This document shows positions 1-49,102 of a DNA stretch of 64,000 bases, piece by piece. The stretch covers positions 161,193 to 225,192 of the forward strand of contig CALSRS010000003.1 in the NCBI GenBank assembly GCA_943788815.1. Reading direction: 5' to 3'. The notes below the pieces were generated by a model, which searched no databases, was not told the origin of the DNA, and was given only the letters and a program-made list of their open reading frames with translations. Every line of letters starts with the position of its first letter. The first letter of the stretch is position 1. The position numbers and the translations under genes are program-made. The DNA is from an uncultured Gammaproteobacteria bacterium. Lineage in GTDB: Bacteria; Pseudomonadota; Gammaproteobacteria; Eutrophobiales; Eutrophobiaceae.

Positions 1-492
1 CCGGGTTGGTTAAATGTGGATATATTTCCTCCAGCAGATCTTACCTTGGATCTGAGAGAAGAGTTTCCATTTCCTGATGTAAGTTTTTCTTTAATTTATT
101 CAGAGCATTTTTTTGAACACATAGAATACCCCACAACAGCCAAATTATTTCTATCAGAATGTAATCGAGTTTTGAAAAAAGATGGAAAAATAAGATTAGC
201 TGTTCCTGATACTGTATGGCCAATGATGGAATATTGTGGTGTCAGTAATAATGGTTACTTTAATATTGCAAAAGAGGATTGGCATCCAGACTGGTGCACA
301 ACAAATATAGAACATATTAATTATCATTTCAGGCAGGACGGAGAGCATAAGTTTGCATACGATTTTGAGACTCTAGAAAAAATTCTGTTATTAACAGGCT
401 TTATCAATATTGAGCAGACAGAGTTTCAAGTAGATATAGATAGTGAAGCAAGAAAAAAAGGAACTTTATATATAAATGCAATAAAAGCATAA
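1..492 (+). CDS. Class I SAM-dependent methyltransferase (Methyltransf_11-like), 5'-truncated by the window edge
   Basis: The frame is open from nt 1 (PGWLNVDIFPPADL...). The ORF track shows the C-terminal part of a small MTase fold (DGKIRLAVPD, EHFFEHIEYP). The stop codon is 4 nt before the next GT gene. The region is AT-rich. Confidence 0.55.
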   Translation, partial: PGWLNVDIFPPADLTLDLREEFPFPDVSFSLIYSEHFFEHIEYPTTAKLFLSECNRVLKKDGKIRLAVPDTVWPMMEYCGVSNNGYFNIAKEDWHPDWCTTNIEHINYHFRQDGEHKFAYDFETLEKILLLTGFINIEQTEFQVDIDSEARKKGTLYINAIKA

Positions 493-495
493 TAG

Positions 496-1599
496 ATGAA
501 AATCCTTTACCTCACTAAGCGTTTCTATATGTCCAGGGACATAGTTAATGACCACTATGGTCGTTATTATGAAATTCCAAAATATCTTTCTATCATGGGA
601 CATGATGTGAGTTTATTTTGTCTTAGTTATAGGAATGCTAATGAAATAACAATATCTTCTGAAACAAATTTGACTGTGAAATCATGGAATTTGGGAATTA
701 ATCCAATTTATGGATTAATAAGACACTACAGTCGTCTTAATCAGATTGTTAGAGATTCAAGACCAGATATTATTATTGCTGGCTCAGACTGTTTTCAAGT
801 GATCATGGGGGCCCGTTTGGCAAAACATAATTCTATCCCAGTTATTGCTGATCTTTATGATAATTATGAAAGTTATAAGGCATCCAGAATCCCTCTCGTC
901 TTACTAATATTTTACCGACGTTTGCTTGATGTTGACTTCATTACAGTTATCTCCAACAAATTAAAAAAATTAATTATATCAAGGACAATATCAAATAAGA
1001 GAATAGATGTTATTGAAAATGCTGTGTCTGAAAATTTCCTTGGGAAAAATGAAAAAGATATGTCTAGAGAAGCATTTAATTTTAAATCAAATGAATTGTA
1101 TATAGGAACTGCTGGAAGTCTAAGTGTAGATAATGGTGTTAAGATCCTAATCGATGCCTTCACAGAACTATCTATTCAAAATAGTAAACTAAATTTAGTA
1201 CTTGCAGGTAGAATAGATAAAAATCTAAATATACCTGATAATGAAAATATTCATTATGTTGGAGACCTTCCACATAAACAAATTCCAATATTTTTATCTG
1301 CCCTGGATCTTGGTGTTATCTGTATTAAAGATAATGATTTTGGACGATATTGTTTTCCTCAGAAATTCTATGAGATGGTTGCATGTATGCTTCCATTAAT
1401 ATCTACCAATGTTGGTGAGATGAGCCGATTACTAAATGGAAATGAGCAATTATTATTTAAAGAAAATAATAAAGATGATTTAATTCGGGCAATTAATTAT
1501 CAGATTAAAAATAAAGTCATCCTCAATAATAAGGTCCCAACTTGGAAAGATCAGGCGGGAAAATTAGATAATATAATTAAGACCATGATAACTAATTAG
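496..1599 (+). CDS. Glycosyltransferase family 1 (GT4-like, retaining)
   Basis: 367 aa. The C-terminal half carries the GT1 E-X7-E-like signature (FPQKFYEMVACMLPLISTNVGEMS). It has a two Rossmann-domain layout and ATG start with the upstream gene ending 4 nt before. It is very AT-rich relative to the core genes. Confidence 0.65.
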   Translation: MKILYLTKRFYMSRDIVNDHYGRYYEIPKYLSIMGHDVSLFCLSYRNANEITISSETNLTVKSWNLGINPIYGLIRHYSRLNQIVRDSRPDIIIAGSDCFQVIMGARLAKHNSIPVIADLYDNYESYKASRIPLVLLIFYRRLLDVDFITVISNKLKKLIISRTISNKRIDVIENAVSENFLGKNEKDMSREAFNFKSNELYIGTAGSLSVDNGVKILIDAFTELSIQNSKLNLVLAGRIDKNLNIPDNENIHYVGDLPHKQIPIFLSALDLGVICIKDNDFGRYCFPQKFYEMVACMLPLISTNVGEMSRLLNGNEQLLFKENNKDDLIRAINYQIKNKVILNNKVPTWKDQAGKLDNIIKTMITN

Positions 1600-1626
1600 C
1601 AATCATGAGAGATTAAACAATAAATT

Positions 1627-2415
1627 TTAATTTACGTTGTTTTCACTGCGGATTAACTTGAAGAGTTCTTCGTGTAATTTTGAATTAGCCGTGAGAATAT
1701 TACCTGTTTTAAGGTAGGAATCATCATTGTTAATGCTGGTGACTATTGCTCCTGACTCCTGGAGCAAGAGGGCCCCCGCAGCCATGTCCCACTCTTTAAG
1801 GCCAAATTCCCAGAAACCATCTAATCGTCCGCATGCAACATAAGCAAGATCGAGTGATGCTGCCCCGGCCCTTCTTATACCGGCAGTTTTGGGGAAAATT
1901 GCTCTAAATATATTTATAAAATCTTCCAGCTTGTCACTTTCACCAAAAGGAAAGCCTGTCCCCAATAAGGCACCGTTAAGATTTTTGCGGTTACTTACAC
2001 GAATTTTTCTGCCGTTCAATTGTGATCCGGCCCCTTTGCTTGCAGTAAATAATTCTTGTTTAAAGGGATCATATATTACTGCATGTACAATTTTCTCTTT
2101 ATGTTTTACAGCAATTGATACTGCAAATTGGGGGAAACCATGAAGAAAATTGGTTGTACCATCCAGGGGATCAATTATCCATTGGTATTCTCCTGATCCT
2201 TGTTCCCCACTTTCTTCTGCAAGAATCGCGTGGTCAGGATAGGATTTTAGAATTGTATTAATAATGAGTTGTTCAGATTTCTTGTCAACTACAGAAACAT
2301 AGTCATGCATACTTTTATCAGTAACCTCAAGATTAGCTACGTCATCAAGGCTCTGAATAATAAAATCACCAGCTATTCGTGCTGCGCGTATTCCAATTGT
2401 TAGTAGAGGGTGCAT
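1627..2415 (-). CDS. suhB: Inositol-1-monophosphatase SuhB
   Basis: 262 aa with IMPase motifs (WIIDPLDGTTNFLHGFPQFAVSIA; EESGE; GAAS). ATG confirmed at 2413-2415. Confidence 0.9.
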   Translation of the reverse strand: MHPLLTIGIRAARIAGDFIIQSLDDVANLEVTDKSMHDYVSVVDKKSEQLIINTILKSYPDHAILAEESGEQGSGEYQWIIDPLDGTTNFLHGFPQFAVSIAVKHKEKIVHAVIYDPFKQELFTASKGAGSQLNGRKIRVSNRKNLNGALLGTGFPFGESDKLEDFINIFRAIFPKTAGIRRAGAASLDLAYVACGRLDGFWEFGLKEWDMAAGALLLQESGAIVTSINNDDSYLKTGNILTANSKLHEELFKLIRSENNVN

Positions 2416-2477
2416 AACTTAGAACAGATACTCAATTAATCGGATAAAACGGTATGTAAGTTTAGGATTGTAACCTA

Positions 2478-4046
2478 TTACCTTAAAGTAGTATTGATAA
2501 TTTTTTCAAGAAGAAAGATTTCTATATTGTTATTGCGGTCTTTAAAGTAAGCAACTTCATGGTAGTCATCATTTGATACTCTTTGCATGGGATAAAATTC
2601 AGGATATTTCCCCGCCGCATCATATACAGGCATAGCCAGTATGTAATTGCAGGCACTAGACCCATTAGTAAATTCTTCATCAGAGACTTCAGGACGAGGT
2701 AATACACTGGAAACTCTTTTGGCATGTAACATAATAATAGGCGCTTGTATCGAGTAAATACATTCATTCTCAGGAACAAAGTTTTGTATTTCTTTTATCG
2801 ATTTGACTATAAAGTATGAATTATTAATCAGTATCTCTGCATTTTCTATATTATTCGCCATTAACCAATTACGGTCGCGGCGATAAGGCATTAACTCTGT
2901 ATCAACACTTGCATAAGCTCTGCTTATATATTGATAAGACGAAGGGGATAATACAGAAATGATTAGAACAATTATTAGAGAATTTCCAAATAATCGTAAA
3001 TTATAGGACTTGTGAAAATGAAAATATTCCATGATGAAATACAATAGACAAATAGGAATTATAGGGTAAAGAAATCTAGATACAAAAAAAATACTGTCGT
3101 ATGGCCAAATTAAAACTATCGCCATATATAAAATTAAAAATATTGCATCAAGTTCAAATTTTCTGATTCGTTTCAGTAATCTTGTAATTGTAAATGTAAG
3201 TATAATAAGTAGTAGAATATTTGTTAAAATTTGATGCAATAATCCAGTCTCAATTCCTGAAAATAGCCAATATATCGACTTGTAGAATATAAGGATTTTC
3301 TGAGTAATGAGATCCAATGCATCTGTTGGGGATAAATTGAATATAGTAGAAGTGAATATATCTATATAACTTGACCGGTCAGGATTGCTTTGCCTTATAA
3401 AATTCCAAAATAGAAAAGGAAGTAAGCAAGCTACTGAATATATTGCTGAATATTTATTTTTTTTCAGAAACATATGAATAATAAAAGCGAAAACAAATGC
3501 AATTCCGATAGATCTTGTAAGAGATGCAAGCGCTACTAAAAGTACTATGCCAATCCAATCCCTGCTATCACGATTCACTTTGCAACTAAGTAACAATGCT
3601 CCGTAGATAAAAATCATAAAGAGAAACTCACTCCACAATTCTTGGGAAAAAATTATGCTGCCAGGCAACATTAGCAGCAGTAAAAATGAGCCATAGGCAA
3701 AAAAATAATTACCAGTGTTTTTGTATATCCATAATGCAGAAATTAAAAAAGACATAACTTGCATTGTGACTGTAATATTTGTTGCCGTTGCAAGGTTATT
3801 GGAGTTGCCACCGAATAAACCAAGTATCATTGGGTATACTGGTGGGAAATAACTGTTTGTACGGAGTAAATCATATATGGCCTGAGCGCCGTTAGTACTG
3901 AATGTGTACATATCAGCGAGTAACAAATAAACAGCGTCATCAGAATTCGACCCAGCAAGCTGGTCATTGTATGTTATAGAAAAATAAAAAATATATCCTG
4001 AAACTACTAGTAGAATGAAAAAGTAATATTTTAAATTGACGAACAT
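2478..4046 (-). CDS. Polytopic membrane protein, GT-C-fold glycosyltransferase-like (ArnT/PMT-like), function unknown
   Basis: 522 aa. The N-terminal ~380 aa is extremely hydrophobic with more than 10 predicted TM helices. An acidic DD motif lies in the first extracytoplasmic loop (GSNSDDAVYLLLADMY), as in GT-C enzymes. The C-terminal ~140 aa is soluble. It lies adjacent to a DPM1-like GT2 and is AT-rich. Confidence 0.45.
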   Translation of the reverse strand: MFVNLKYYFFILLVVSGYIFYFSITYNDQLAGSNSDDAVYLLLADMYTFSTNGAQAIYDLLRTNSYFPPVYPMILGLFGGNSNNLATATNITVTMQVMSFLISALWIYKNTGNYFFAYGSFLLLLMLPGSIIFSQELWSEFLFMIFIYGALLLSCKVNRDSRDWIGIVLLVALASLTRSIGIAFVFAFIIHMFLKKNKYSAIYSVACLLPFLFWNFIRQSNPDRSSYIDIFTSTIFNLSPTDALDLITQKILIFYKSIYWLFSGIETGLLHQILTNILLLIILTFTITRLLKRIRKFELDAIFLILYMAIVLIWPYDSIFFVSRFLYPIIPICLLYFIMEYFHFHKSYNLRLFGNSLIIVLIISVLSPSSYQYISRAYASVDTELMPYRRDRNWLMANNIENAEILINNSYFIVKSIKEIQNFVPENECIYSIQAPIIMLHAKRVSSVLPRPEVSDEEFTNGSSACNYILAMPVYDAAGKYPEFYPMQRVSNDDYHEVAYFKDRNNNIEIFLLEKIINTTLR

Positions 4047-4113
4047 ATGATCAGAGAGTCATATTCTTTAATATTTTTGAAGCTGAACATTAATAAAACG
4101 TGAGGCTGTTAAT

Positions 4114-4815
4114 TTATATTCTGAGAAAACCATATTTTATTATGCAATAAATCGCACTTATCCCATCACGCCAGTTGATCTTCTTCCCCTCTGCATATGT
4201 TCTTCCAGCATATGATATACCAACTTCATATATTTTTATTTCAGGAATACGGGAGATTTTGATTGTCACTTCTGGCTCAAATCCAAATCGGTCTTCCGTT
4301 AATTCAATGCTCTTAATTATTTCTTTCTTAAATAATTTATAGCAGGTCTCCATATCTGTAAGATTTAAATCACTAAACATATTGCAAAATAAAGTTAAAA
4401 ATCTATTACCAATGGAGTGCCAGAAATATAGCACTCGGTGAGATTCTCCTCCCAAAAAGCGACTTCCGTAAACCACATCCGCATTATTCTTGATCACAGG
4501 TTCTATCATTAAGCAATATTCAGCTGGATCGTATTCAAGGTCAGCATCCTGAATAATTATATAATCACCTTCAGCTATACTTATACCTGTTCTAATCGCC
4601 GCCCCTTTTCCCTGGTTTGAATTATGTAATTCAAGCAAATCTATATATTTGTTTAGTTTTCCAGAAAGTAAATCGCGAGTGCCGTCAGTTGATCCATCAT
4701 CAACAACAATAACCTGTTTATTTTTCACTGGAGAAGAGTTGACCTTTTCCAGCAAGCGTTCTATGGTCGCTTCTTCGTTAAAACAAGGAATAATTATTGA
4801 AAGAGTGTATGACAT
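4114..4815 (-). CDS. GT2 family polyprenyl-phosphate sugar transferase (DPM1/ArnC-like catalytic domain, no C-terminal TM anchor)
   Basis: 233 aa: LSIIIPCFNEE...VVDDGSTDGT...QDADLEYDP (GT-A DXD region). ATG at 4813-4815. The stop codon lies 67 nt after the start codon of the GT-C gene on the same strand. Confidence 0.75.
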   Translation of the reverse strand: MSYTLSIIIPCFNEEATIERLLEKVNSSPVKNKQVIVVDDGSTDGTRDLLSGKLNKYIDLLELHNSNQGKGAAIRTGISIAEGDYIIIQDADLEYDPAEYCLMIEPVIKNNADVVYGSRFLGGESHRVLYFWHSIGNRFLTLFCNMFSDLNLTDMETCYKLFKKEIIKSIELTEDRFGFEPEVTIKISRIPEIKIYEVGISYAGRTYAEGKKINWRDGISAIYCIIKYGFLRI

Positions 4816-4948
4816 GTTATTTTATATAATTATGAATATGGAGTATGAAAATATATTATCTTTTGGATAAATTATAATTGTGTTTGTTTCAAGCTGAGCA
4901 TTATAAATTATCGGGATTATTAAAACTTATTTTTTGAAAAAAAAACAT

Positions 4949-5692
4949 ATGAATTCGGTAACATTACATAATATTAAGATAATTTTAGTTGAAACCACTC
5001 ATCCTGGGAATATAGGTGCGTCTGCCAGAGCAATGAAAACCATGGGTTTAGGAGCACTCAGACTAGTAAACCCAAAATTATTTCCCAGTGCAGATGCTAC
5101 AGTCCGTGCCGCAGGTGCAGATGACATTCTATCAGAAGCAGAAATTTATGATTCACTTGCCGATGCAGTTGGAGATTGCAAGTATCTTTATGGAACAAGT
5201 ACCAGGAAACGTTCTTTACAATGCGAAGTCTTAAGTCCTGAGTCTGCAACGAATGAAATTATTAATGTCATGGACAATGACATTAATATAGGGATAGTGT
5301 TTGGAAGGGAGAGAACTGGATTGACGAACAGTGAACTGGATCTCTGTAATAAGATGGTTGCGATACCCACAAATCCAGAATTTTCATCTCTCAATATTGC
5401 CTCTGCAGTTCAGATCATATGTTATGAAATAATAAAAAGATCTCTCATTACAGGCCAGGATAATGTGTCTGCTAAATACGAAAATACTCCTGTAGATAGT
5501 TCTGAATTGGCCCGGCTTTATGCTCATCTGGAACAATGTTTGATAGATATTGATTTCCTGGATCCCTTAAAACCCAGACGATTGATGAGGAGGTTGAAGC
5601 AATTATTTAACCGGACAGAAATGGATCAGAATGAATATAATATTTTACGAGGGATACTGACAGCAGTTCAGGAAAAAATTAAACAAAAATAA
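4949..5692 (+). CDS. trmJ: tRNA (cytidine/uridine-2'-O)-methyltransferase TrmJ (SpoU family)
   Basis: IKIILVETTHPGNIGASARAMKTMGL aligns with the E. coli TrmJ N-terminus. The ORF-track start at 4934 is TTG. The in-frame ATG at 4949 gives MNSVTLHNIKI..., matching the E. coli start. Confidence 0.85.
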   Translation: MNSVTLHNIKIILVETTHPGNIGASARAMKTMGLGALRLVNPKLFPSADATVRAAGADDILSEAEIYDSLADAVGDCKYLYGTSTRKRSLQCEVLSPESATNEIINVMDNDINIGIVFGRERTGLTNSELDLCNKMVAIPTNPEFSSLNIASAVQIICYEIIKRSLITGQDNVSAKYENTPVDSSELARLYAHLEQCLIDIDFLDPLKPRRLMRRLKQLFNRTEMDQNEYNILRGILTAVQEKIKQK

Positions 5693-8907: not shown

Positions 8908-10551
<1,644 letters not shown>

Positions 10552-10658
10552 AGTTACCTCCAGGTAGGTATCAGTGATATTCTTATGTATGATATTGTTC
10601 GCTTTACTGAATTAAATATGAAAACGACATGCCCATGATTATACTTCATATATAAATT

Positions 10659-11924
10659 ATGAATATACGATATTTACATCGTTTTCAGTATCTTTTGGAA
10701 TGGGTATTTTATTTTACTCGTTTTTTCTTCAGACAGTTCTATCAACAACGCGGTTTACAAATCGCTTCTTCATTGGCTTACGCAACATTACTTGCACTGG
10801 TCCCAATTATCACTGTGATGTTTGGATTTCTTGGCGGGTTGCCCGTATTTGAAAATGTTGGCACTTCTGTTCAAACTTATATTTTTAATAATTTTGTTCC
10901 TGCATTTGGAGAAACTATACTTACATATTTAAGGACTTTTTCTCAAAAAGCATCACAATTAACCATTACCGGCCTGGCAATGATTTTTTTTATAGCCATT
11001 ATGTTGATGGCAACAATTGATAATGCTTTTAATACGATATGGCATATTCGTAACAAGAGGAACCCCGTTGCCCGTTTTCTTGTTTACTGGGCAATTCTCA
11101 CTATGGGTCCCCTATTATTGGGTGTGGGTATGTTTTCAACTTCCTATATCTTGTCTCTACCGGCAATCAGCGATGTCGATGCAGGGTTTGGACTGAAAGA
11201 AAGTTTCTTATCATGGCTACCTTTTTTGACTACGTCTGTTGCATTCACAATTTTATATGTTCTTGTTCCAAACTGTTTTGTTCTGAGGAGACATGCAGTA
11301 GTGGGTGGTATAACAGCAGCATTATTGTTTGAATTTGCAAAATATGGTTTTGGAATCTATGTCAGGGATATTGCAAGTTTTGAAACCATTTACGGCACAC
11401 TGGCGATTGTTCCAATATTTTTGATATGGATATACACATCGTGGGTTGTCTTAATCCTTGGCGCCCATATTACATTTTGTCTCTCTGCTTTTCATTTCTC
11501 GGTTGAAAGGCGTGGAATTAAGGATCACGAATGGTCTTTTGCGGATGTTTATCATGTGATTTATTTTTTGTGGATGGCACAAAAGGATGGGAAAACGTTG
11601 TCTAGTTATGATATCCGGCGTAGCGGGGTTAAGGCGCCTCAATATCAGATAAATGAAATTATGGGGAATTTGCAGAATGCCAATTGGGTCCAGACAACCG
11701 GAGCAGGTCACTGGATATTGTCACGAGATATGGATGAAGTGTCCGTAATGGACCTGGTTAAAATTACACCAAAACCCCTTCCGGTCGATTTAGATATTGA
11801 GGGCCATAATACAAAGCTCGGAGGTTTAAATGATCTACTATTGGAATATCATGATAGCCTTGGGAAAAATCTGGGGGTTCCTTTAAGTCAGCTCCTTGTA
11901 AAGACTTTAGAGCAAAAAGACTGA
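10659..11924 (+). CDS. yihY: YihY/BrkB (virulence factor BrkB / RNase BN-like) family inner-membrane protein with C-terminal extension
   Basis: LQIASSLAYATLLALVPIITV plus six TM segments, with a ~130-aa soluble C-terminal domain. Confidence 0.75.
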   Translation: MNIRYLHRFQYLLEWVFYFTRFFFRQFYQQRGLQIASSLAYATLLALVPIITVMFGFLGGLPVFENVGTSVQTYIFNNFVPAFGETILTYLRTFSQKASQLTITGLAMIFFIAIMLMATIDNAFNTIWHIRNKRNPVARFLVYWAILTMGPLLLGVGMFSTSYILSLPAISDVDAGFGLKESFLSWLPFLTTSVAFTILYVLVPNCFVLRRHAVVGGITAALLFEFAKYGFGIYVRDIASFETIYGTLAIVPIFLIWIYTSWVVLILGAHITFCLSAFHFSVERRGIKDHEWSFADVYHVIYFLWMAQKDGKTLSSYDIRRSGVKAPQYQINEIMGNLQNANWVQTTGAGHWILSRDMDEVSVMDLVKITPKPLPVDLDIEGHNTKLGGLNDLLLEYHDSLGKNLGVPLSQLLVKTLEQKD

Positions 11925-11944
11925 TGTTAGATTAAATTTCAATT

Positions 11945-13552
11945 TCAAGCTGACACGTTTTTATTTATTGTAAATTGTTCAAATCCAGTAGTAGATTCTG
12001 TTAATGATCCTGTAATTGCCTTGATGCTGTTGCCCTTTATATTAAGCTCAATTTCTCGGTTTTTAATGAACATACCTTTATCTGTAATTATAGAATTACC
12101 ATTGCCTGTATTATTACTTAACAAAAACGCTCGCCGATAACGCATGTCCTGTGCACTTCCAGTGCATGCTCTGATTGCGGCGGTCCGTGTATCAGTTGAT
12201 ATAATCTGTGCCCCAATCCTGAATATTTCTCCATCTTTTATCATCAGCCAACGCACCGTCCCTATCGCCCACTTTTTATCAGAATTTTTAGTATCTATAA
12301 TAACCAGTTCTCCAACCTTAATATTATGTGCAGGTTTTAATTTACGTATAACTGCAAATCCACGTGAGCTTTGGTCAACTAATTCCCAAATGTCAGTTTT
12401 ATAATCCTTCATAGGGGCAGTTGGATTGTTGATTATCTCATATTCCAGATCTTCTTCTGACTCAATGATTGGAGGAGGAGAGAACTCTTCCTGATTATTA
12501 AGGAAATAATATACGTCGTTTAAACCGCACGCGAGTTCAAGCTTGCCAGAACGTTGCTTTCTGGGACTACTACGTTTGGGTGGTCGCCCCCAAACAACGG
12601 TTAGGTGTTCCAGAATCATTTTTGCAAAGTAAGGTGAAATAACAATAGATTTTTCCGGTCGCCCACTAGATTCTATGGTGTGTAAATGTTCATTTATTTT
12701 TTTATAAAGTTTTGTTGCATCAATAATGCGATGTTTATCACTAGCCTTGCTCAAGTTGAATTTTGAATAAGGTATAGGAATATTATCTGACTGTAGATTT
12801 GCGACAAACCGATTAATATCATTTTCAGTTTTTTCAAATGGTGAAATTTCAATTAATCTTATCCAATCACTCAGTTGTTCATAAATTTCCCAAATCGCAC
12901 CATAAGGAAGGTGATGGGGATCTGCTAATGAAGCTAGTAGGATTCGTTTATATGCGTCAGCGATTGTATTAATATTTTTGTTGGGAAATGATTCCGAAGA
13001 TGCAATGGTTGTATTTTCTTGCTTTAGAGATTCTGCAAAATCATAAATAAAGTTTATTTCTTTCCAAACATTTTTAGGTGCTGGTGAATATTCCAGATAA
13101 CTGAAAATAAGAGCGTGTGATAAATAATTTAAAGAGTATAAAAGATTTGCCAATGGTGGCTTGGATTGTTTCCAGAGTGTTTTTTTCTTAAGAGTATCTT
13201 CAGCCGATAATCTACATGCCTTGGCAAGGTTGGTTGCAATATTTTTTAATACTCTGATTTGTTCCTGTGCCGTTTCAATAGATTGTAAGGTATGTTGGGC
13301 ACCAGCCTTAATTTGTGAATCAATATAATACTGATACGGTTGTGCATATAATTCCACAAGTTCCAGGCGAGTTGATGGCTTAACATCTTGCTCATTGGTT
13401 AATGCTGTTGCTTGAGCCAATAATTGGCTGGTTTTTTTAAAATCAATATAGGGCAGTTTCTCCAGCCACTCTTCAATGTACATAGGCCGGGTATCAATCT
13501 GCAGGCCATTTGAGGTTTTTCGAGTTGGAATTTCAAATATGCTTGATGTCAT
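11945..13552 (-). CDS. Conserved hypothetical protein, 535 aa, possible PilZ-like C-terminal domain
   Basis: Long ORF with ATG confirmed, syntenic between yihY and acyP/proS. The C-terminus contains DQSSRGFAV, which is D-x-S-x-x-G-like, followed by a beta-rich segment. No clear RxxxR motif lies upstream of it. Confidence 0.5.
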   Translation of the reverse strand: MTSSIFEIPTRKTSNGLQIDTRPMYIEEWLEKLPYIDFKKTSQLLAQATALTNEQDVKPSTRLELVELYAQPYQYYIDSQIKAGAQHTLQSIETAQEQIRVLKNIATNLAKACRLSAEDTLKKKTLWKQSKPPLANLLYSLNYLSHALIFSYLEYSPAPKNVWKEINFIYDFAESLKQENTTIASSESFPNKNINTIADAYKRILLASLADPHHLPYGAIWEIYEQLSDWIRLIEISPFEKTENDINRFVANLQSDNIPIPYSKFNLSKASDKHRIIDATKLYKKINEHLHTIESSGRPEKSIVISPYFAKMILEHLTVVWGRPPKRSSPRKQRSGKLELACGLNDVYYFLNNQEEFSPPPIIESEEDLEYEIINNPTAPMKDYKTDIWELVDQSSRGFAVIRKLKPAHNIKVGELVIIDTKNSDKKWAIGTVRWLMIKDGEIFRIGAQIISTDTRTAAIRACTGSAQDMRYRRAFLLSNNTGNGNSIITDKGMFIKNREIELNIKGNSIKAITGSLTESTTGFEQFTINKNVSA

Positions 13553-13771
13553 CGTAATTATTATAATTTTTTTATTAAATTAATAAGAGCAATTTTTATT
13601 CCAGTTTTCTTCACATCAATCAAATTTACGTTTAAGTTGGGATTATAATGATTGCTTTGAGAGCCGGATCACATTTTGTATCATTCATAATGGAATTTTT
13701 AGTCAACTAAGCCGGTTTATTTCATTACCTGACACGATTGCATGCTTATTATATTAGATAGGAAGAATTGA

Positions 13772-14071
13772 TTGTCTCAAATTAGCGACACTGTTCCAGA
13801 TCAATTTAAGACGGTTTACTTCAGGGTAAAAGGACGGGTACAAGGTGTTTATTTTCGAGCATCAACCAAATCAGCTGCAGATAAGTCAGGTATTACAGGC
13901 TGGGTCAAAAACAGGACCGATGGTGATGTGGATGGTATGGCTACTGGTAGTGAGGAACAACTGTCTGGATTTGTCAGTTGGTTAAAACAGGGGCCCAAGC
14001 TGGCAAATGTTAGTACCGTTGAAATCTGCACATCTGACGCGCAAGAATATGAAGGTTTTGAAATACGTTAA
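13772..14071 (+). CDS. acyP: Acylphosphatase
   Basis: VYFRVKGRVQGVYFRASTK...GWVKNRTDGDV is the acylphosphatase signature. The frame has a stop immediately upstream and no in-frame ATG. A TTG start at 13772 has a GGAAG SD sequence 6 nt upstream. Confidence 0.8.
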   Translation: MSQISDTVPDQFKTVYFRVKGRVQGVYFRASTKSAADKSGITGWVKNRTDGDVDGMATGSEEQLSGFVSWLKQGPKLANVSTVEICTSDAQEYEGFEIR

Positions 14072-14072
14072 C

Positions 14073-15773
14073 CTATTTTTTCTTAATAAAGTTCAGGACA
14101 TCGTCAATCTGTAAATCTTGATGGTCTTTATCCTTTCGTCCCTTGTATTCAACTATTCCTTTATCTAACCCTTTTTCACTCATGACAATACGATGAGGAA
14201 TTCCCAGAAGTTCCATGTCAGCGAACATCACACCTGGTCGCTCCTTTCTGTTGTCCAGTAATACATCGAAACCGGCATCTCGAGCGATATTGTAGAAATC
14301 TTCTACAGCTTCACTCAAGCGTCGGGATTTATGCATATTGATCGGTACTATTGCTATATCGAAGGGTGCAATGGATTCTGGCCAGATAATTCCATATTCA
14401 TCATGATTTTGTTCTATTGCCGCGGCGACGATTCTGCTAATTCCAATCCCGTAACATCCCATAATTAATGTGACTGATTTACCTTTTTCATCGAGACAGT
14501 TTACCTTCATGGAACTGCTGTATTTAGTCCCTAGCTGAAATATATGTCCAACTTCTATGCCTTTGGCTATCCTGACAGTATTTTTAGTACCTGGCGCTGT
14601 TTCCCCTACTGAAATATTTCTTAGATCTAAAAAATCAGGTGCTGGCAGGTCTTTGTCCCAGTTTACCCCTGTATAGTGGTAGCCATTCTCATTTGCACCA
14701 CAAACAAAATCAGACATTATCGCAGTACTATGATCGGCATAAACCGGGATTTTTAGATCAACTGGTCCTATAGAGCCGATATCGCATCCAAGGTGTTTTG
14801 AAATATCTTCCGAAGATGCAAACTTTAATGGTGTGTGAATGCCCTCAATGCGTTCTGCCTTGATACGGTTTAATTCATGATCTCCGCGTAGTAATAAGGC
14901 GATTAGTTGATCATCTTTTCCATGAACTATCAGTGTTTTGAGGGTCTGTTTGCTTGGGATATTAAGATAGCTGCTAATATCAGAAATGCTATGTTGTTTC
15001 GGGGTTGAAACCTTTTCCATATCCTGACCTGGGTCCTCCCGACTTTCTGATGGTGCTTGAGTCTCTACCATTTCAATATTTGCGGCAAAGCTACCATCAT
15101 CAGTAAAAACGATTTCATCTTCACCTGATTCTGCCAGTACGTGAAATTCGTGAGATGTATCTCCGCCAATGTTTCCGCTATCTGCCAGGACAGCACGATA
15201 TTCCAGTCCCAGGCGATCAAAGATTTTAGAATAGGTTTGATACATGGTTTCATAGGTGGCATTTAGTGATTCTTCGTCGAGATGAAATGAATAAGCATCT
15301 TTCATAATAAATTCCCGGGCACGCATTACACCAAATCTGGGTCTGATTTCATCTCGGAATTTCGTTTGAATCTGGTAAAAGATGGCAGGTAATTGTTTAT
15401 AACTTCTAATTTCACGTCGAACCAGATCAGTAATGACTTCTTCATGTGTTGGGCCCAGGCAAAATCCTCTATCGTGGCGATCAGAAAATCTGAGGAGTTC
15501 CGGACCATACTGCTCCCATCGGCCAGTTTCTTGCCAAAGCTCAGCAGGTTGAACCCCTGGCATCAGTAATTCCTGTGCAGTTACTGCGTTCATTTCTTCT
15601 CGGACAATTTGCTCAACTTTTCTCAATACTTTCAGACCGGTAGGCAGCCAAATATACACGCCAGAGGCGAGTTGTCGTATGAGTCCGGCACGCAGCATTA
15701 ATTGGTGACTAATCGTTTCCGCATCTGCGGGCACTTGCCGTTGTGTTGCTAAAAGTAACTGCGCTGTTTGCAT
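14073..15773 (-). CDS. proS: Proline--tRNA ligase (bacterial type with editing domain)
   Basis: 566 aa with class II aaRS motifs and the ProRS N-terminus (MRASQLLLATLRE-like). It is convergent with acyP, with 1 nt between the stop codons. Confidence 0.95.
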
Positions 15774-15882
15774 TATTTAATACTCTTTAGTTATCCATCT
15801 GTGGTCGCGTATGTTATCTCACTAGTCACCTGAGCTTAAATTGATTACCAGATACAGATACTGGCCAGGATTTTTAAAAAAT

Positions 15883-15927
15883 TGTGCAAAGCACAACTTG
15901 ACCTCTGTCAGGAAAATCAGTAGTTTA
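15883..15927 (+). promoter_or_regulatory. Candidate ilvIH promoter with adjacent perfect palindrome TTGTGCaaaGCACAA
   Basis: The palindrome at 15883-15897 lies immediately 5' of TTGACC (15899-15904). A 17-nt spacer and TAGTTT (15922-15927) follow, ~40 nt upstream of the ilvI GTG. Confidence 0.3.
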
Positions 15928-15966
15928 GCAGGATTTATCTATTAGGAATATTCGAGAGAAAAATCG

Positions 15967-17691
15967 GTGGAAACGAACGAAAAACTACGTGGAGCAGACA
16001 TATTTGTCCGATCATTAATTGATGAAGGGGTAACTCACCTATTTGGTTATCCAGGCGGTGCCGTTTTACATATTTATGATGCGCTATATAAGCAGCAAGA
16101 AATCAATCACATCCTGGTGAGACATGAACAGGGTGCAACACACGCAGCAGACGGATATGCCCGGGCAACGGGTAAGCCGGGTGTCGTCCTTGTAACCTCA
16201 GGACCTGGCGTTACAAATGCGATTACCGGTATTGCTACTGCCTATATGGACTCTATTCCCCTGGTGGTCTTTTCCGGTCAGGTAATAACAAGCATGATAG
16301 GCAATGATGCATTTCAGGAGGTCGATGCCATCGGTATTTCCAGGCCATGTGTTAAGCATAATTTCCTGGTAAAAGATGTTAAAGACCTGGCAAGCACCAT
16401 TAAGAAGGCATTTTATGTTGCCATGAGTGGACGTCCTGGTCCTGTATTAGTGGATATCCCTAAAGATGTGACAGCTGATATGTGTGATTATTCCTATCCT
16501 AAGGATATCGAGATGCGGTCATACCGTCCTGTTACCAAGGGACATCCCGGGCAAATTAAACGTGCAATCAAGATGCTTATGTCAGCAAAAAAACCGATGG
16601 TTTATACCGGTGGTGGAGTCATCCTCAGCGATGCTCATGAAGAATTAACATTTATGACACAAAAGCTTGGATATCCTATAACCAATACCTTAATGGGGCT
16701 AGGGGGCTATCCGGCAACTGATAAGCAGTTTCTGGGCATGCTGGGTATGCATGGTACTTATGAAGCAAATATGGCCATGCATCATTGCGATGTACTATTG
16801 GCAATCGGTGCTCGGTTTGATGACAGGGTTACGGGTGACCTGGAAAAGTTCTGCCCTTATGCAAGGATCATACATATCGATGTTGACCCAGCATCAATTG
16901 CAAAAAATGTCCCGGTTGATATTCCAATTGTGGGTGATGTGAAAAGTGTATTATCTGACATCAATAAATCCCTGGAATCCCAGCTGCACAAGATTGATAA
17001 AGAAGCAATTGCACTCTGGTGGAACCAGATCCATGAATGGCAAAAAATGGATTGCCTGAGATTTGACAGGCAATCAGAGAAAATTAAACCTCAGCATGTA
17101 ATTGAAACACTTTATAATTTAACCAATGGTGATGCATATGTAACATCTGATGTTGGTCAGCATCAAATGTGGGCCGCCCAGTTTTATAAATTTAATAAAC
17201 CAAGGCGCTGGATAAATTCGGGTGGATTAGGAACTATGGGTTTCGGTCTTCCTGCGGCGATGGGCGTCAAGGTGGCACACCCGGATGATACGGTTGTCTG
17301 TATCAGTGGAGAAGCCAGCCTGGTGATGTGTATACAAGAACTGTCTACCTGTTTGCAGTATGGTCTACCCGTTAAGATCATTCTGTTGAATAATCGGTAT
17401 ATGGGCATGGTTCGTCAATGGCAGGAATTTTTTTATGACAAAAGGTATTCGCATTCCTATATGGATGCCTTACCTGATTTTACTAAACTTGCTGAAAGTT
17501 TTGGACACGTGGGCTTACGTGTCGAAAAATCAAGTGATGTAAAAGGGGCTCTGGAAGAAGGTCTGGCCATGACGGATAGACTGGTATTGATGAATTTCAT
17601 AACTGATCAAACTGAGAATGTTTATCCAATGATAGCGGCGGGCAAAGGGCAGCATGAAATGCACCTTACGCCAGAACGAGAATTGGCCTGA
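15967..17691 (+). CDS. ilvI: Acetolactate synthase (acetohydroxy-acid synthase) large subunit
   Basis: 574 aa with ThDP/FAD-binding AHAS motifs (GYPGGAVLHIYDAL; GLGTMGFGLPAAMG). GTG start at 15967 has a GAGAG SD sequence. Confidence 0.9.
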   Translation: METNEKLRGADIFVRSLIDEGVTHLFGYPGGAVLHIYDALYKQQEINHILVRHEQGATHAADGYARATGKPGVVLVTSGPGVTNAITGIATAYMDSIPLVVFSGQVITSMIGNDAFQEVDAIGISRPCVKHNFLVKDVKDLASTIKKAFYVAMSGRPGPVLVDIPKDVTADMCDYSYPKDIEMRSYRPVTKGHPGQIKRAIKMLMSAKKPMVYTGGGVILSDAHEELTFMTQKLGYPITNTLMGLGGYPATDKQFLGMLGMHGTYEANMAMHHCDVLLAIGARFDDRVTGDLEKFCPYARIIHIDVDPASIAKNVPVDIPIVGDVKSVLSDINKSLESQLHKIDKEAIALWWNQIHEWQKMDCLRFDRQSEKIKPQHVIETLYNLTNGDAYVTSDVGQHQMWAAQFYKFNKPRRWINSGGLGTMGFGLPAAMGVKVAHPDDTVVCISGEASLVMCIQELSTCLQYGLPVKIILLNNRYMGMVRQWQEFFYDKRYSHSYMDALPDFTKLAESFGHVGLRVEKSSDVKGALEEGLAMTDRLVLMNFITDQTENVYPMIAAGKGQHEMHLTPERELA

Positions 17692-17697
17692 TATAGC

Positions 17698-18189
17698 ATG
17701 CGCCATATACTCTCTTTGCTCGTTGAAAACGAAGCTGGTGCTTTGTCCCGAATATCTGGTTTGTTTTCTGCACGAGCCTTCAATATTGAGTCACTGACTG
17801 TGGCCCCGACAGAAGATGAATCGCTTTCACGCATGACAATAGTGACAACGGGTTCGGACCAGATTATTGAGCAGATCACCAAGCAGTTAAATAAGTTGGT
17901 TGATGTAATTAAGGTTATTGATCTTAATGAAAGGAATTATATTGAAAGGGAGTTATTATTGATCAAACTGGATTCGACCAAGATAGGTACCCCACAGCTG
18001 GAGTCAATTGTAAGTGAGTTTAAGGGTGTAGTGATCGACGATAGTGACAATACAATTACAATAGAATTAATCAATACAGGCGAAGTTCTGGATAGTTTTA
18101 TTGATAAACTAGAGAAAGATTGGATATTCGAAGTAGTCAGGACAGGAGTTTCAGGAATTGCCCTGGGGGCCAGTGTTATAAAATATTAA
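17698..18189 (+). CDS. ilvH: Acetolactate synthase small (regulatory) subunit
   Basis: ACT domain: LSLLVENEAGALSRISGLFSARAFNIESL. It lies 6 nt after ilvI. Confidence 0.9.
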   Translation: MRHILSLLVENEAGALSRISGLFSARAFNIESLTVAPTEDESLSRMTIVTTGSDQIIEQITKQLNKLVDVIKVIDLNERNYIERELLLIKLDSTKIGTPQLESIVSEFKGVVIDDSDNTITIELINTGEVLDSFIDKLEKDWIFEVVRTGVSGIALGASVIKY

Positions 18190-18193
18190 TTAA

Positions 18194-19228
<1,035 letters not shown>

Positions 19229-37803: not shown

Positions 37804-38157
37804 ATGGCCAATATAGATTTAATTAAATTAAAAAAGAAGTCGAGAATATTACAGATTAAATTTGATGATGATCTGTCCGCAGACCTTGATTTTGAATATT
37901 TGCGAGTGCATTCTCCGTCTGCAGAAGTCAGGGGGCATGGTAAAGGTCAGGAAATATTACAAGTCGGTAAACAGGATGTGGTTTTGTTGGAAATACTCCC
38001 TGTTGGTAACTATGCCGTTAAACTGATTTTTGATGATGGACATGATAGTGGTATCTATACCTGGAACTACCTCTATGAATTAAGTATAAATAAAGATGAC
38101 TATTTGAAGGTTTATAAAAGTAAAGTAGAGATATTCAATAATCAGGAAAATTTATGA
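37804..38157 (+). CDS. DUF971 family protein (gamma-butyrobetaine hydroxylase-like N-terminal domain)
   Basis: 117 aa located upstream of ubiE with an ATGA overlap. It shows the LQIKFDD...YLRVHSPSAEV pattern. Confidence 0.7.
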   Translation: MANIDLIKLKKKSRILQIKFDDDLSADLDFEYLRVHSPSAEVRGHGKGQEILQVGKQDVVLLEILPVGNYAVKLIFDDGHDSGIYTWNYLYELSINKDDYLKVYKSKVEIFNNQENL

Positions 38158-38903
38158 GTAATACTGAATTTACAGATTTTGGAATTGAGAATATCCATCC
38201 AGATGAAAAACGAAAGCGTGTAAACGACCTGTTTGATTCAGTGGCATCAAATTATGATTTAATGAATGATTTAATGTCATTAGGAGTACACAGGTTATGG
38301 AAAAGATATGCAGCTCATATTTCCAATGTTAAATCTGGTGATATCGTTCTTGATGTCGCAGGTGGTACCGGCGACATGGCCAGGAAGTTTTCGCAGCGTG
38401 TTGGCGATCAGGGAAGTGTCTATATTTGTGACCTAAGTTATGAAATGCTTGCTATGGGTAGAAATCGCCTGATTAATTCGGGTGATTATAATAATATTAA
38501 AATCATACAAGGGGATGCAGAGAATCTGCCGTTTCAAGATAATCAGTTTGACATGATTTCAGTAGCATTTGGATTAAGAAACATGGCAGATAAACAACAA
38601 TCCTTAGCTTCGATGTATTCTAAATTAAAGTATGGAGGGAAATTATTAATTCTTGAATTTTCTCATCTAGTAATCAATATATTTAAACCACTATACCATT
38701 CATATTCTGATGGCTATATTCCTGCCTTGGGTAAAATAGTTGCCAGAGATGAACCAAGTTATCGATATCTTGTTGATTCAATTAAACGTCATCCCAATCA
38801 AGAAACCTTAAAAACTATGATAGAACAGGTCGGTTTTTCCAGGGTTTGTTATCATAATTTGTCTGGAGGTATCGTTGCTATCCATACGGCTTACAAACTC
38901 TAG
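38154..38903 (+). CDS. ubiE: Ubiquinone/menaquinone biosynthesis C-methyltransferase UbiE
   Basis: VLDVAGGTGD SAM motif and the UbiE N-terminus (KRVNDLFDSVASNYDLMNDLMS). Confidence 0.9.
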   Translation: MSNTEFTDFGIENIHPDEKRKRVNDLFDSVASNYDLMNDLMSLGVHRLWKRYAAHISNVKSGDIVLDVAGGTGDMARKFSQRVGDQGSVYICDLSYEMLAMGRNRLINSGDYNNIKIIQGDAENLPFQDNQFDMISVAFGLRNMADKQQSLASMYSKLKYGGKLLILEFSHLVINIFKPLYHSYSDGYIPALGKIVARDEPSYRYLVDSIKRHPNQETLKTMIEQVGFSRVCYHNLSGGIVAIHTAYKL

Positions 38904-38926
38904 ATTAATATATAGGTCATAATGCG

Positions 38927-39538
38927 TTGAGGCTAGATCTCTTTAATTCTTTTGAGCAGATGTTCAATAAAATTTTGCTTGATAACCCTGATTTGTTTGA
39001 TGAGATTCAGGAGCATAAGGGTAGCGTGCTTTATATTGAGTTACTAAATACTAAGACACATCTGACAATAATTATTGTAGAAAAGGGTATAGAAATAAGC
39101 GAAGAGCATGCTAGTAATCCTGACTTAATAATACGTGCAACTCCATTTGAACTGCTCAATTATTTTAAATTGGCCAATCAAAAAATAGCTCATGGGTCAG
39201 GTAAAATCGAAATTTCTGGGAATATTAATCTTGCACAGAGATTACAGACAATAATAGTAAGACTTAGTATAGATTGGGAAGATAAATTATCTGAACTCAT
39301 TGGAGATGAACTATCACATAGCCTTGGGTTCATGATTAGGAAAATATCAAAAAATGTGAGTTATGCTAAAAAGGAGTTTTTGTATAATGTTGCTGAATAT
39401 ATCAAATATGAAAATGACGTTATTATAAATGCAGATAAGCTTAATCATTTGAATAGAGCTATAGACCAACTTCGTGATGATGTGGAAAGACTGAAGTTCA
39501 GAATAAATCGGTTGTCTCCACCAACTGAAGGAGGTTGA
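38927..39538 (+). CDS. ubiJ: Ubiquinone biosynthesis accessory factor UbiJ (SCP2 domain)
   Basis: Located between ubiE and ubiB as in E. coli (yigP). 203 aa. The longest ORF starts at TTG 38927. An alternative ATG lies at 38960. Confidence 0.6.
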   Translation: MRLDLFNSFEQMFNKILLDNPDLFDEIQEHKGSVLYIELLNTKTHLTIIIVEKGIEISEEHASNPDLIIRATPFELLNYFKLANQKIAHGSGKIEISGNINLAQRLQTIIVRLSIDWEDKLSELIGDELSHSLGFMIRKISKNVSYAKKEFLYNVAEYIKYENDVIINADKLNHLNRAIDQLRDDVERLKFRINRLSPPTEGG

Positions 39539-48544: not shown

Positions 48545-49009
48545 CTAAGCAACTCCTCCAAAATTAATTTGCCTTAAGGCTTCATACAAAATAACAGCAA
48601 CAGCATTCGATAGATTCAAACTTCGGCTATTATTTTGCATTGGTATCCTTAAAATATTATTTTGTCCAGTATAGTTAAGAATATCTTCTGGTAATCCGCG
48701 TGTTTCAGGACCAAAAATGATTGTGTCACCCTCACTAAACGCTACATTTGTATATCTTTTTTCTCCTTTAGTTGAGGCTGCAAACAATCTATTTGCAGTA
48801 TGGTTTTTAATGAAATTTTCAAATGAATCATGTTCTACGACTCTGGATAATTCCCTGTAATCCATACCGGCCCGCCTTAGCTGTTTATCATTTAGATCAA
48901 ATCCAAGAGGATGAATCAGATGGAGGTAAGCACCTGCATTTGCTGTTAATCTTATTATATTACCAGTATTTGGTGGGATTTCGGGTTCAAACAATACAAT
49001 ATGAAACAT
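48545..49009 (-). CDS. trmL: tRNA (cytidine34/cmnm5U34-2'-O)-methyltransferase TrmL (SpoU family)
   Basis: MFHIVLFEPEIPPNTGNIIRL matches E. coli TrmL. The ORF-track start is TTG at 49015. The ATG at 49009 is preferred. Confidence 0.85.
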   Translation of the reverse strand: MFHIVLFEPEIPPNTGNIIRLTANAGAYLHLIHPLGFDLNDKQLRRAGMDYRELSRVVEHDSFENFIKNHTANRLFAASTKGEKRYTNVAFSEGDTIIFGPETRGLPEDILNYTGQNNILRIPMQNNSRSLNLSNAVAVILYEALRQINFGGVA

Positions 49010-49102
49010 ATTCAAGTATAAAATCTATAGATGGATTGTTTAATCTATCTGATTAATGTCCTTAACGCTATAATGGGAATATCTAAATCATAAATATAAC
49101 TC

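Follow-up and report, generated by a model that had tools for sequence, protein, structure and literature searches.

A conserved GT2/GT-C gene pair beside suhB at the end of an O-polysaccharide-type locus in an uncultured gammaproteobacterium

The stretch of DNA studied here (the window, 64 kb of contig CALSRS010000003.1 from an uncultured Gammaproteobacteria bacterium) begins with a set of glycosylation genes placed around suhB. This work deals with the two of them that lie between suhB and trmJ, one encoding a polytopic membrane protein of 522 amino acids (aa) and the other a soluble family 2 glycosyltransferase (GT2) of 233 aa. Positions 1-4933 are probably the downstream end of an ABC-transporter-dependent O-polysaccharide-type locus, which is located at a conserved trmJ/suhB/purM site and abuts a lineage-conserved two-gene module whose products would work as a lipid-phosphate-sugar synthase and a periplasmic glycosyltransferase of GT-C fold. 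The gene content, order and coordinates given in a first-pass annotation of the window were borne out by the open reading frame (ORF) map and by Pfam and NCBIfam searches (threshold E ≤ 0.01), and so was the arrangement that it had cited for Escherichia coli, in which trmJ and suhB lie next to each other in divergent orientation, with 118 bp between them in MG1655.

The gene pair and the adjoining polysaccharide cluster

The 522-aa protein (positions 2478-4046, minus strand) did not match any entry of Pfam or NCBIfam, and the profile of its family found no PDB sequence at E ≤ 10. Existing GT-C sequence families (PMT_2, PMT, Glyco_transf_22, TMEM260-like and others) gave no significant hidden Markov model (HMM) match with the window protein, so the label "GT-C-like" that it had received lacks HMM support, and it is the predicted fold that agrees with it. 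The AlphaFold2 model was confident (pLDDT 89.5, pTM 0.90) and showed the polytopic module of the GT-C superfamily (7-13 transmembrane (TM) helices), which could be superposed on solved GT-C enzymes. All its strong structural matches were GT-C transferases, for which reason a WaaL- or Wzy-like ligase or polymerase was discarded.

The acidic motif of GT-C enzymes was also identified. It has the form G-x3-DDA-x-Y-L and directly follows TM1 (helix 2-25), in the first periplasmic loop, which is the canonical GT-C catalytic position; in alignments down to about 20% identity D36 was invariant and D37 at least 90% conserved. The other residues conserved at this level of identity were A38, P68, S139, E140, R178, W314/P315, R324, C429 and C466, the two Cys lying in a C-terminal alpha/beta domain of about 145 aa in which no tetratricopeptide repeat (TPR) was matched by Pfam. 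The helices of the model and the short K/R-rich loops (155-160, 195-199 and 290-297), rather than a dedicated predictor, suggest a topology with the N-terminus inside, about 11 TM helices and the C-terminus outside, which would therefore place all the conserved residues and the C429/C466 domain on the periplasmic side. By its predicted fold and its motif, the 522-aa protein is a GT-C-fold glycosyltransferase belonging to a previously undescribed sequence family without a Pfam model.

This family is sizeable. A word-indexed homologue search gave 40 relatives, none of them with a Pfam domain, and a second one with a broader profile added almost none. With clusters counted at 50% identity, exhaustive profile search of 1.84 billion representatives yielded 585 of them at a threshold of E ≤ 1e-30 and 2,677 when the threshold was E ≤ 1e-10, the members coming almost entirely from uncultured Gammaproteobacteria. 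The weak Pfam matches of the distant members were with PMT_2, TMEM260-like and PMT, all of them protein O-mannosyltransferase-type families, and PMT_2 reached E ≤ 0.01 in only 12 of 46 distant relatives (best E = 2.4e-7). As PMT_2 matches are so few and weak, and PDB sequences were not matched, the family has a marginal position in the ArnT/PMT-type GT-C clan.

The 233-aa GT2 (4114-4815, minus strand; Pfam Glycos_transf_2, E = 5e-35) had its best NCBIfam matches with AglJ (1e-32), PpgS, the dolichyl phosphate (Dol-P)-hexose transferase and ArnC. The scores were far below the equivalog cutoffs, which rules out orthology with each of these proteins. Its best PDB matches were the Dol-P-mannose (Dol-P-Man) synthase of Pyrococcus furiosus (5mlz; E = 2e-18, residues 3-213 on 23-236), ArnC and GtrB. 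The alignment with 5mlz covers the whole catalytic domain and the interface-helix region, and the DAD metal-binding motif of the Dol-P-Man synthase family is found at residues 90-92. No hydrophobic segment was detected in the GT2, so it has no TM anchor. Within the Dol-P-Man synthase family, a TM anchor is also missing from human DPM1 and mycobacterial Ppm1/PpgS, and the window protein resembles DPM1 and the catalytic domain of Ppm1 in this respect; it differs from them in that no anchoring partner similar to DPM2/DPM3 or Ppm2 was identified. The GT2 is thus probably a polyprenyl-phosphate hexose (or hexosamine) synthase of the DPM1/AglJ/PpgS/ArnC/GtrB type, as predicted from its sequence, and since it is bacterial the lipid would presumably be undecaprenyl phosphate, unlike that of the Dol-P-Man synthase.

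At most of the inspected loci the core-clade GT-C members occur together with such GT2s, which are anchor-less proteins of 233-234 aa at suhB loci and GtrB-like proteins of 289-292 aa with two C-terminal hydrophobic helices at pilin loci. The adjacency at many loci to GT2s of polyprenyl-phosphate type suggests that a lipid-phosphate-linked sugar may be the donor of the 522-aa protein, which would use it on the extracytoplasmic face. It is highly improbable that this protein has a GT-C-like fold and is nevertheless no glycosyltransferase, being instead a scaffold like PIG-U/GAB1 of the glycosylphosphatidylinositol transamidase, or a transporter, with the GT2 next to it by coincidence. Such a role would fit the lack of any sequence-level match to a characterised enzyme, as well as one relative (L034) in which the GT-C gene has no adjacent GT2. 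However, the acidic motif is invariant at the catalytic position, other invariant residues are on the periplasmic face, and the family recurs beside polyprenyl-phosphate GT2s in differing genomic contexts.

The region upstream of the window was inspected on metagenome contigs matching it (4 mismatches in 11.6 kb), on which the window start corresponds to L002:9506 and 9.5 kb are visible. Identical GT4 and GT-C sequences are shared by many metagenome contigs, which reach 1 Mb in length. The first-pass annotation had considered the genes as surface-glycan determinants whose cluster continued beyond the window, and both claims were confirmed on these near-identical contigs. In the visible part, which has 32.6% GC overall, all genes are on the plus strand in the order Wzm, Wzt, sulfotransferase, STELLO-like GT, GT7C-like protein, two weak sulfotransferase matches, three GT2s, 216-aa methyltransferase and GT4. 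Wzm was recognised by ABC2_membrane and Wzt by ABC_tran and the carbohydrate-binding domain Wzt_C (PF14524, E = 7e-8, 33.0 bits with a cutoff of 30.4). One of the sulfotransferases is clear (Sulfotransfer_1/3) and the other two are weaker, one of them with a PKTGST motif resembling a 3'-phosphoadenosine-5'-phosphosulfate loop; these genes and the STELLO-like GT lie in L002:1911-6351.

With respect to the wzx, wzy and wzz genes for which the first-pass annotation had looked to this region, none was found in the visible 9.5 kb, which does not reach the start of the cluster, and the Wzm/Wzt export genes were present instead, so that a wzx/wzy-type cluster was rejected. When the first 43 bases of L002 were searched for exact matches among the metagenome contigs, no sequence further upstream was obtained, and a scan with the Wzt protein only gave generic Wzt relatives of up to 56% identity. 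The presence of Wzm and Wzt therefore makes this an ABC-transporter-dependent O-polysaccharide-type locus, with a Wzt of the cap-recognising kind. Its product is probably a sulfated and methylated glycan, sulfation being suggested by the sulfotransferase genes of the cluster. A methyl or sulfate cap, possibly added by the 216-aa methyltransferase or by the sulfotransferases, may control export through Wzt_C.

The last two genes of this plus-strand operon are those entering the window. The penultimate one encodes the class I S-adenosylmethionine-dependent methyltransferase (Methyltransf_11, Pfam E = 8e-8), of which positions 1-492 (plus strand) hold the 3' part, i.e. the last 158 codons of the 216-aa protein plus 5 in-frame codons upstream; the full gene is present in L001-L005. 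The final gene encodes a cytoplasmic GT4-family glycosyltransferase of GT-B fold (496-1599, plus strand, 367 aa; Pfam Glycos_transf_1 and Glyco_transf_4). In some assemblies (L001, L006 and L007; ENA ERZ106465xx) several genes are fragmented, among them suhB, purM, the AI-2E transporter gene and those from wzt through the sulfotransferases. They are intact in other assemblies of the same organism, and the fragmentation is most likely due to long-read indel errors rather than to pseudogenes.

Going beyond gene content, fold, motifs, synteny and composition, we infer the enzymatic activities, donor lipid and sugar, flipping, co-transcription and acceptor as follows. On the cytoplasmic side of the inner membrane, the soluble GT2 would load undecaprenyl phosphate with one sugar, taken from a nucleotide sugar. 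A flippase encoded outside the window would then bring the lipid-phosphate-sugar across to the periplasmic side, where the GT-C protein would take it as donor and pass the sugar to an acceptor; the conserved residues of this protein on that side would be D36/D37, S139/E140, R178, W314/P315 and R324. The acceptor would most likely be a glycan associated with lipopolysaccharide (LPS), either the exported O-polysaccharide, as in Gtr-type three-component systems, or, as in the ArnC/ArnT-type pairs, a conserved component, for example lipid A-core. If this mechanism is true, the 522-aa protein would represent a sequence-novel GT-C family and a candidate for a new CAZy family, as happened recently with GT136, which was founded by the ORF15/ORF14/ORF12 system of Citrobacter youngae O1 (PMC11127046). 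In addition, the synthase/GT-C module would be part of the conserved, vertically inherited envelope machinery of a gammaproteobacterial lineage and not a mobile serotype-converting accessory. The biology overall is of a well-known kind and the locus as a whole is an ordinary surface-glycan locus, its moderately novel element being the uncharacterised GT-C family with its secondary association with pilin loci.

Synteny, inheritance and base composition

Relatives were obtained by exact-protein look-ups and a genome scan, and all of them were metagenome-assembled genomes of uncultured Gammaproteobacteria. The order of the window, trmJ / GT2 - GT-C - suhB / GT4, was found in L014, L015, L018 and L020, and L034 showed the same order minus the GT2. 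The position of suhB relative to the pair varies, as L021 has the order trmJ / suhB - GT2 - GT-C / GT4 and L016 has trmJ / suhB - epimerase - GT2 - ... - sulfotransferase - GT-C / GT4 - GT2 - ... rml genes, with suhB before the pair in both and the pair located inside the glycan cluster in L016. Identity to the window protein was 68-75% for the GT2, 60-69% for SuhB, 56-66% for PurM, 49-61% for TrmJ and 31-46% for the GT-C protein, the GT2 being therefore better conserved than SuhB, TrmJ or PurM. GT4 was found at the same position with 29-63% identity (38-63% apart from the 29% of L014), and no orthologue of the methyltransferase was found at the same position in the relatives.

The loci of these relatives range from 35 to 62% GC, and in each of them the G+C content at third codon positions (GC3) of the pair follows that of the host core genes (GT-C 0.84 and SuhB 0.83 in L021; GT2 0.63 and SuhB 0.61 in L020). 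Moreover, repeat and tRNA scans did not reveal any tRNA, insertion sequence (IS) element, integrase or flanking direct repeat as marks of insertion. Since synteny is kept, the GT2 is better conserved than its housekeeping neighbours, GC3 is host-matched and marks of insertion are missing, the pair, and probably also GT4, appears to be ancestral in the lineage, and these sequence comparisons indicate that the pair has been vertically inherited and is not a recent import. Gene content beyond GT4 is variable: that of L014 includes Methyltransf_21, GT1 and GDP-mannose dehydratase, and that of L016 rml, MBOAT and radical-SAM genes. This variation makes diversification or exchange plausible there, and the variable AT-rich part is thus the O-polysaccharide cluster beyond GT4.

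Two of the loci, L020 (CAMDWI010000009.1) and L034 (CAMBTO010000029.1), are filed as "Klebsiella pneumoniae" and yet have the trmJ/GT-C/suhB synteny of the window (L034 minus the GT2). SuhB of L020 is 52% identical to that of E. coli and 69% to that of the window, the latter value being the same for SuhB of L034, and both labels look wrong. In L034 about 220 bp (L034:9687-9908) separate trmJ from the GT-C gene, the GT2 gene being absent and GT-C, suhB and GT4 being kept; the gene for the donor synthase may lie at another site, or the module may be in decay.

The first-pass annotation had proposed that the GT-C/GT2 pair was a horizontally acquired, possibly strain-specific insertion, on the basis that the four glycosylation genes looked more AT-rich than a background of 40-45% GC. 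The background is lower than this, as the whole window averages 38.5% GC. Region 1-4933 is indeed AT-rich (33.1% GC), the second-lowest of 591 sliding windows of equal length (mean 38.7%, sd 1.6%). However, only the methyltransferase (GC3 0.220, z = -3.0) and GT4 (0.228, z = -2.8) were GC3 outliers, whereas the GT-C gene (0.279, z = -1.3) and the GT2 gene (0.295, z = -0.8) were indistinguishable from trmJ (0.294, z = -0.85); suhB (0.308, z = -0.45) was typical for the window. The GT-C gene has 32% GC overall, with 0.365 and 0.317 at codon positions 1 and 2, so its low GC is mainly due to these positions, i.e. to an amino-acid composition rich in Ile, Phe, Leu, Tyr and Asn. Karlin codon bias set none of the four glycosylation genes apart from the core genes of the window.

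Equally low GC3 values were observed in core genes elsewhere in the window (38154-39538 and 48545-49015), namely ubiE (0.276), an SCP2-family gene resembling ubiJ (0.265) and a small SpoU-family methyltransferase gene (0.229). As these core genes are similarly low and GT4 keeps its position in the relatives in spite of a low GC3, such a value is not diagnostic of acquisition. In genome scans, neither AT-rich surroundings of surface-glycan genes nor a gene order differing from that of E. coli is by itself a sign of recent horizontal transfer.

It is accordingly very unlikely that all four glycosylation genes form a recent horizontal, possibly strain-specific AT-rich island enclosing the core gene suhB. 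The AT-richness of the region and of the upstream cluster, the GC3 of the methyltransferase and GT4, and the differences in O-polysaccharide cluster content among relatives, which would fit exchange of that part, are all in line with an island. For the GT2, GT-C and GT4 genes, however, this is already contradicted by their presence at the same trmJ/suhB/purM locus in relatives of very different GC with host-matched GC3 (the GT-C protein being 31-46% identical), by a GT2 more conserved than the flanking housekeeping genes, by a pair that is no outlier in GC3 or codon bias, by the lack of insertion marks and by a GT4 kept in position. Recurrence of the pair at the suhB-trmJ locus across the lineage is largely what the first-pass annotation itself had named as telling against its proposal.

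Acceptor and comparison with known systems

We consider that the mechanism of synthase plus GT-C transferase is probable and that, overall, an LPS or O-polysaccharide acceptor has about an even chance. The glycan context is consistent with it: Wzm, Wzt with its Wzt_C domain, sulfotransferases and several GTs lie directly upstream of the module, and the family member of L023 is contiguous with Wzm/Wzt genes. Modules formed by a synthase, a flippase and a GT-C protein have been shown experimentally at the ends of ABC-transporter-dependent O-polysaccharide loci (PMC11127046). The likeness of the window module to three-component systems (GtrA/GtrB/Gtr* of Shigella and Salmonella, O-antigen galactosylation in Klebsiella, and the C. 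youngae O1 system) consists of the pairing of a polyprenyl-phosphate-sugar synthase with a GT-C-fold transferase, here with the GT2 gene 67 bp upstream of that for GT-C, the location at the end of an O-polysaccharide locus, ABC-transporter-dependent ones included, and a GT-C acidic motif after TM1 together with an extra periplasmic C-terminal domain. The differences are that the window module has no flippase gene (GtrA/SMR or MATE) next to it, that its synthase is anchor-less, with 233 aa instead of the about 305 aa of GtrB and without the C-terminal TM helices of the latter, and that its GT-C protein has no detectable similarity to GT-C sequences of Pfam, NCBIfam or PDB. Furthermore, the window module is conserved across a lineage with differing O-polysaccharide clusters, in contrast to the classical Gtr systems, which are accessory elements that convert serotype and are often carried by phages.

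In the ArnC/ArnT-type pairs of lipid A modification, a GT2 makes an undecaprenyl-phosphate-sugar, which a GT-C then passes on in the periplasm to a part of LPS that is conserved. The window pair is proposed to work in the same manner, ArnC is among the best matches of its GT2, and lineage-wide conservation fits a conserved acceptor. However, the GT2 reaches 53 bits in the ArnC model, whose cutoff is 529, the GT-C protein has no sequence match to ArnT/PMT_2, no genes similar to arnA, arnB, arnD, arnE or arnF lie near the pair, and the module is linked to an O-polysaccharide cluster and suhB and not to a PhoPQ/PmrAB-type operon. The pair is therefore not a member of the aminoarabinose system, and ArnT orthology of the 522-aa protein was rejected given the lack of both a sequence match and arn genes. 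Analogous synthase/GT-C pairs are FlmF2/FlmK of Francisella, LgmA/LgmB of Bordetella and RgtE/RgtA-D of Rhizobium.

Members of the family were also present near type IV pilin genes. The order pilS - pilR - GT-C - pilA - pilA was found in L017 and L023, and in L024, L027 and L030 pilins lie 5-7 kb from a GT-C member. The pilin-flanking members are 31-33% identical to the window GT-C, and those of L027 and L030 21-23%. In a quick neighbour-joining tree, built without support values, the pilin-linked members of L013, L024 and L017/L023 were interleaved with suhB-linked ones.

In L023 (OZ245888.1), where the locus from pilS onwards occupies positions 9971-18728, the two pilA genes are followed by one for a membrane protein of 607 aa and then by those for a GtrB-like GT2, a helix-turn-helix protein, Wzm and Wzt (with Wzt_C), so that pilin genes and an ABC-transporter glycan cluster form one continuous locus. 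The 607-aa protein has an N-terminal FVFDD motif and C-terminal TPR matches, that is, an architecture like that of TfpW. In L013 (OZ253477.1; the same as L022), three tandem GT-C paralogues of 553, 562 and 554 aa (L013:6292-11374) are divergent from a type IV pilin gene, on whose side a 571-aa membrane protein without Pfam match, a GtrB-like GT2 and a GT4 are encoded; this looks like a dedicated multi-enzyme locus for pilin or glycan modification.

These loci raise the possibility of protein O-glycosylation, in which the lipid-phosphate-linked sugar would be passed on by the GT-C protein to a protein of the periplasm or the cell surface, with type IV pilin as the most plausible one, in the manner of TfpW of Pseudomonas aeruginosa or the PMT-type O-mannosyltransferases. 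We regard a protein acceptor as improbable, clearly behind a glycan of LPS type. It would agree with the pilin genes flanking the members of L017, L023 and L013, with pilins lying no more than about 7 kb from the more distant members of L027 and L030, with the interleaving of both groups on the tree and with the PMT_2, TMEM260-like and PMT matches of distant members; a conserved target would also account for the conservation of the pair beside variable O-polysaccharide clusters. Nevertheless, no pilin-like ORF is present in the 64-kb window, and in the window's own subclade the GT-C gene is always beside GT4 and a polysaccharide cluster and never beside a pilin. The pilin locus of L023, being contiguous with Wzm/Wzt, indicates that linkage to pilins may be incidental, the neighbour-joining tree is crude, and the architecture of TfpW is different.

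TfpW is a GT-C D-arabinofuranosyltransferase acting on the pilin of group IV P. aeruginosa, with 646 aa and a C-terminal TPR domain (bioRxiv 10.1101/2020.04.19.049825). The window protein resembles it in having about 11 TM helices, a DDX motif in the first periplasmic loop and a C-terminal domain located in the periplasm, and some members of its family lie directly beside pilA. It differs in its 522 aa and in a small alpha/beta C-terminal domain without TPR, the comparison being one of architectures. In addition, the window has neither a pilin, immediately downstream of which a gene of TfpW type is placed, nor genes for D-arabinofuranose (DprE1/E2, phosphoribosyltransferase). The 522-aa protein is thus not of the TfpW type and, as the architectures differ, orthology was rejected. 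The repeated placement of family members at pilin loci is a testable lead on pilin glycosylation. A broader version, in which a sizeable uncharacterised GT-C family targets protein, type IV pilin, or pilin and O-polysaccharide together, with an anchor-less, unusually conserved DPM1-like synthase and without a dedicated flippase, also seems unlikely to us. If protein or pilin were the target, this would be a new bacterial route of protein glycosylation, parallel to TfpW and PglL/TfpO.

Several observations weigh against the proposed synthase/GT-C mechanism with an LPS-associated acceptor. First of all, a flippase is not encoded within the module, whose gaps are of just 67 and 62 bp. A hydrophobicity screen of the 64-kb window for flippases similar to GtrA/SMR found no ORF of 90-190 aa with at least three TM-like segments, and a MATE-type flippase was not seen among the genes with Pfam calls (window to about 32 kb), no screen having been aimed at MATE or other large membrane proteins. 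In addition, the GT2 does not have the TM anchor of GtrB and ArnC, and the GT-C gene of L034 stands without a GT2. The pair is conserved beside differing O-polysaccharide clusters, which argues for a conserved acceptor, with lipid A-core, a conserved region of the O-polysaccharide and a protein as candidates, and fits poorly with a serotype-specific side-chain transferase. Moreover, the related members at pilin loci, interleaved on the quick tree, make a protein acceptor possible, and neither the donor sugar nor the acceptor can be read from sequence. The exported O-polysaccharide in particular is a possible acceptor, favoured by adjacency to Wzm/Wzt and made less certain by conservation of the pair beside differing clusters and by the pilin-linked relatives.

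Neighbouring genes

The gene suhB (1627-2415, minus strand) encodes a 262-aa protein of the inositol-monophosphatase family, homologous to the Nus factor SuhB (Pfam Inositol_P, E = 3e-69; NCBIfam PRK10757, 294 bits) and 48% identical to SuhB of E. coli. The GT2, GT-C and suhB genes are co-directional, with suhB in last place and gaps of 67 bp (GT2/GT-C) and 62 bp (GT-C/suhB), and they are probably co-transcribed as one operon. Scans for consensus promoters and terminators gave signals at chance level, neither for nor against this co-transcription. The trio converges on GT4 over 27 bp and diverges from trmJ over an AT-rich intergenic region of 133 bp (4816-4948), which presumably holds the promoters of both trmJ and GT2-GT-C-suhB.

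On the other side of this region, trmJ (4949-5692, plus strand) encodes a 247-aa tRNA Cm32/Um32 2'-O-methyltransferase (NCBIfam TrmJ PRK15114, 233 bits; TIGR00050 above cutoff) with 45% identity to that of E. coli. The start codon preferred by the gene callers on the source contigs is the ATG at 4949, which gives the 247-aa form, and the most upstream possible start is a TTG at 4934. The 3' ends of trmJ (plus strand) and purM (minus strand) overlap convergently by 14 bp (5679-5692). The start of purM is ambiguous, the mechanical ORF having 395 aa from a GTG and the gene callers giving 349-374 aa. Finally, a FimW-type protein with FimW_N and FimW_C domains is encoded at 11945-13552 (minus strand), about 8 kb from the glycosylation pair; the FimW family is linked to type IV pilus regulation.

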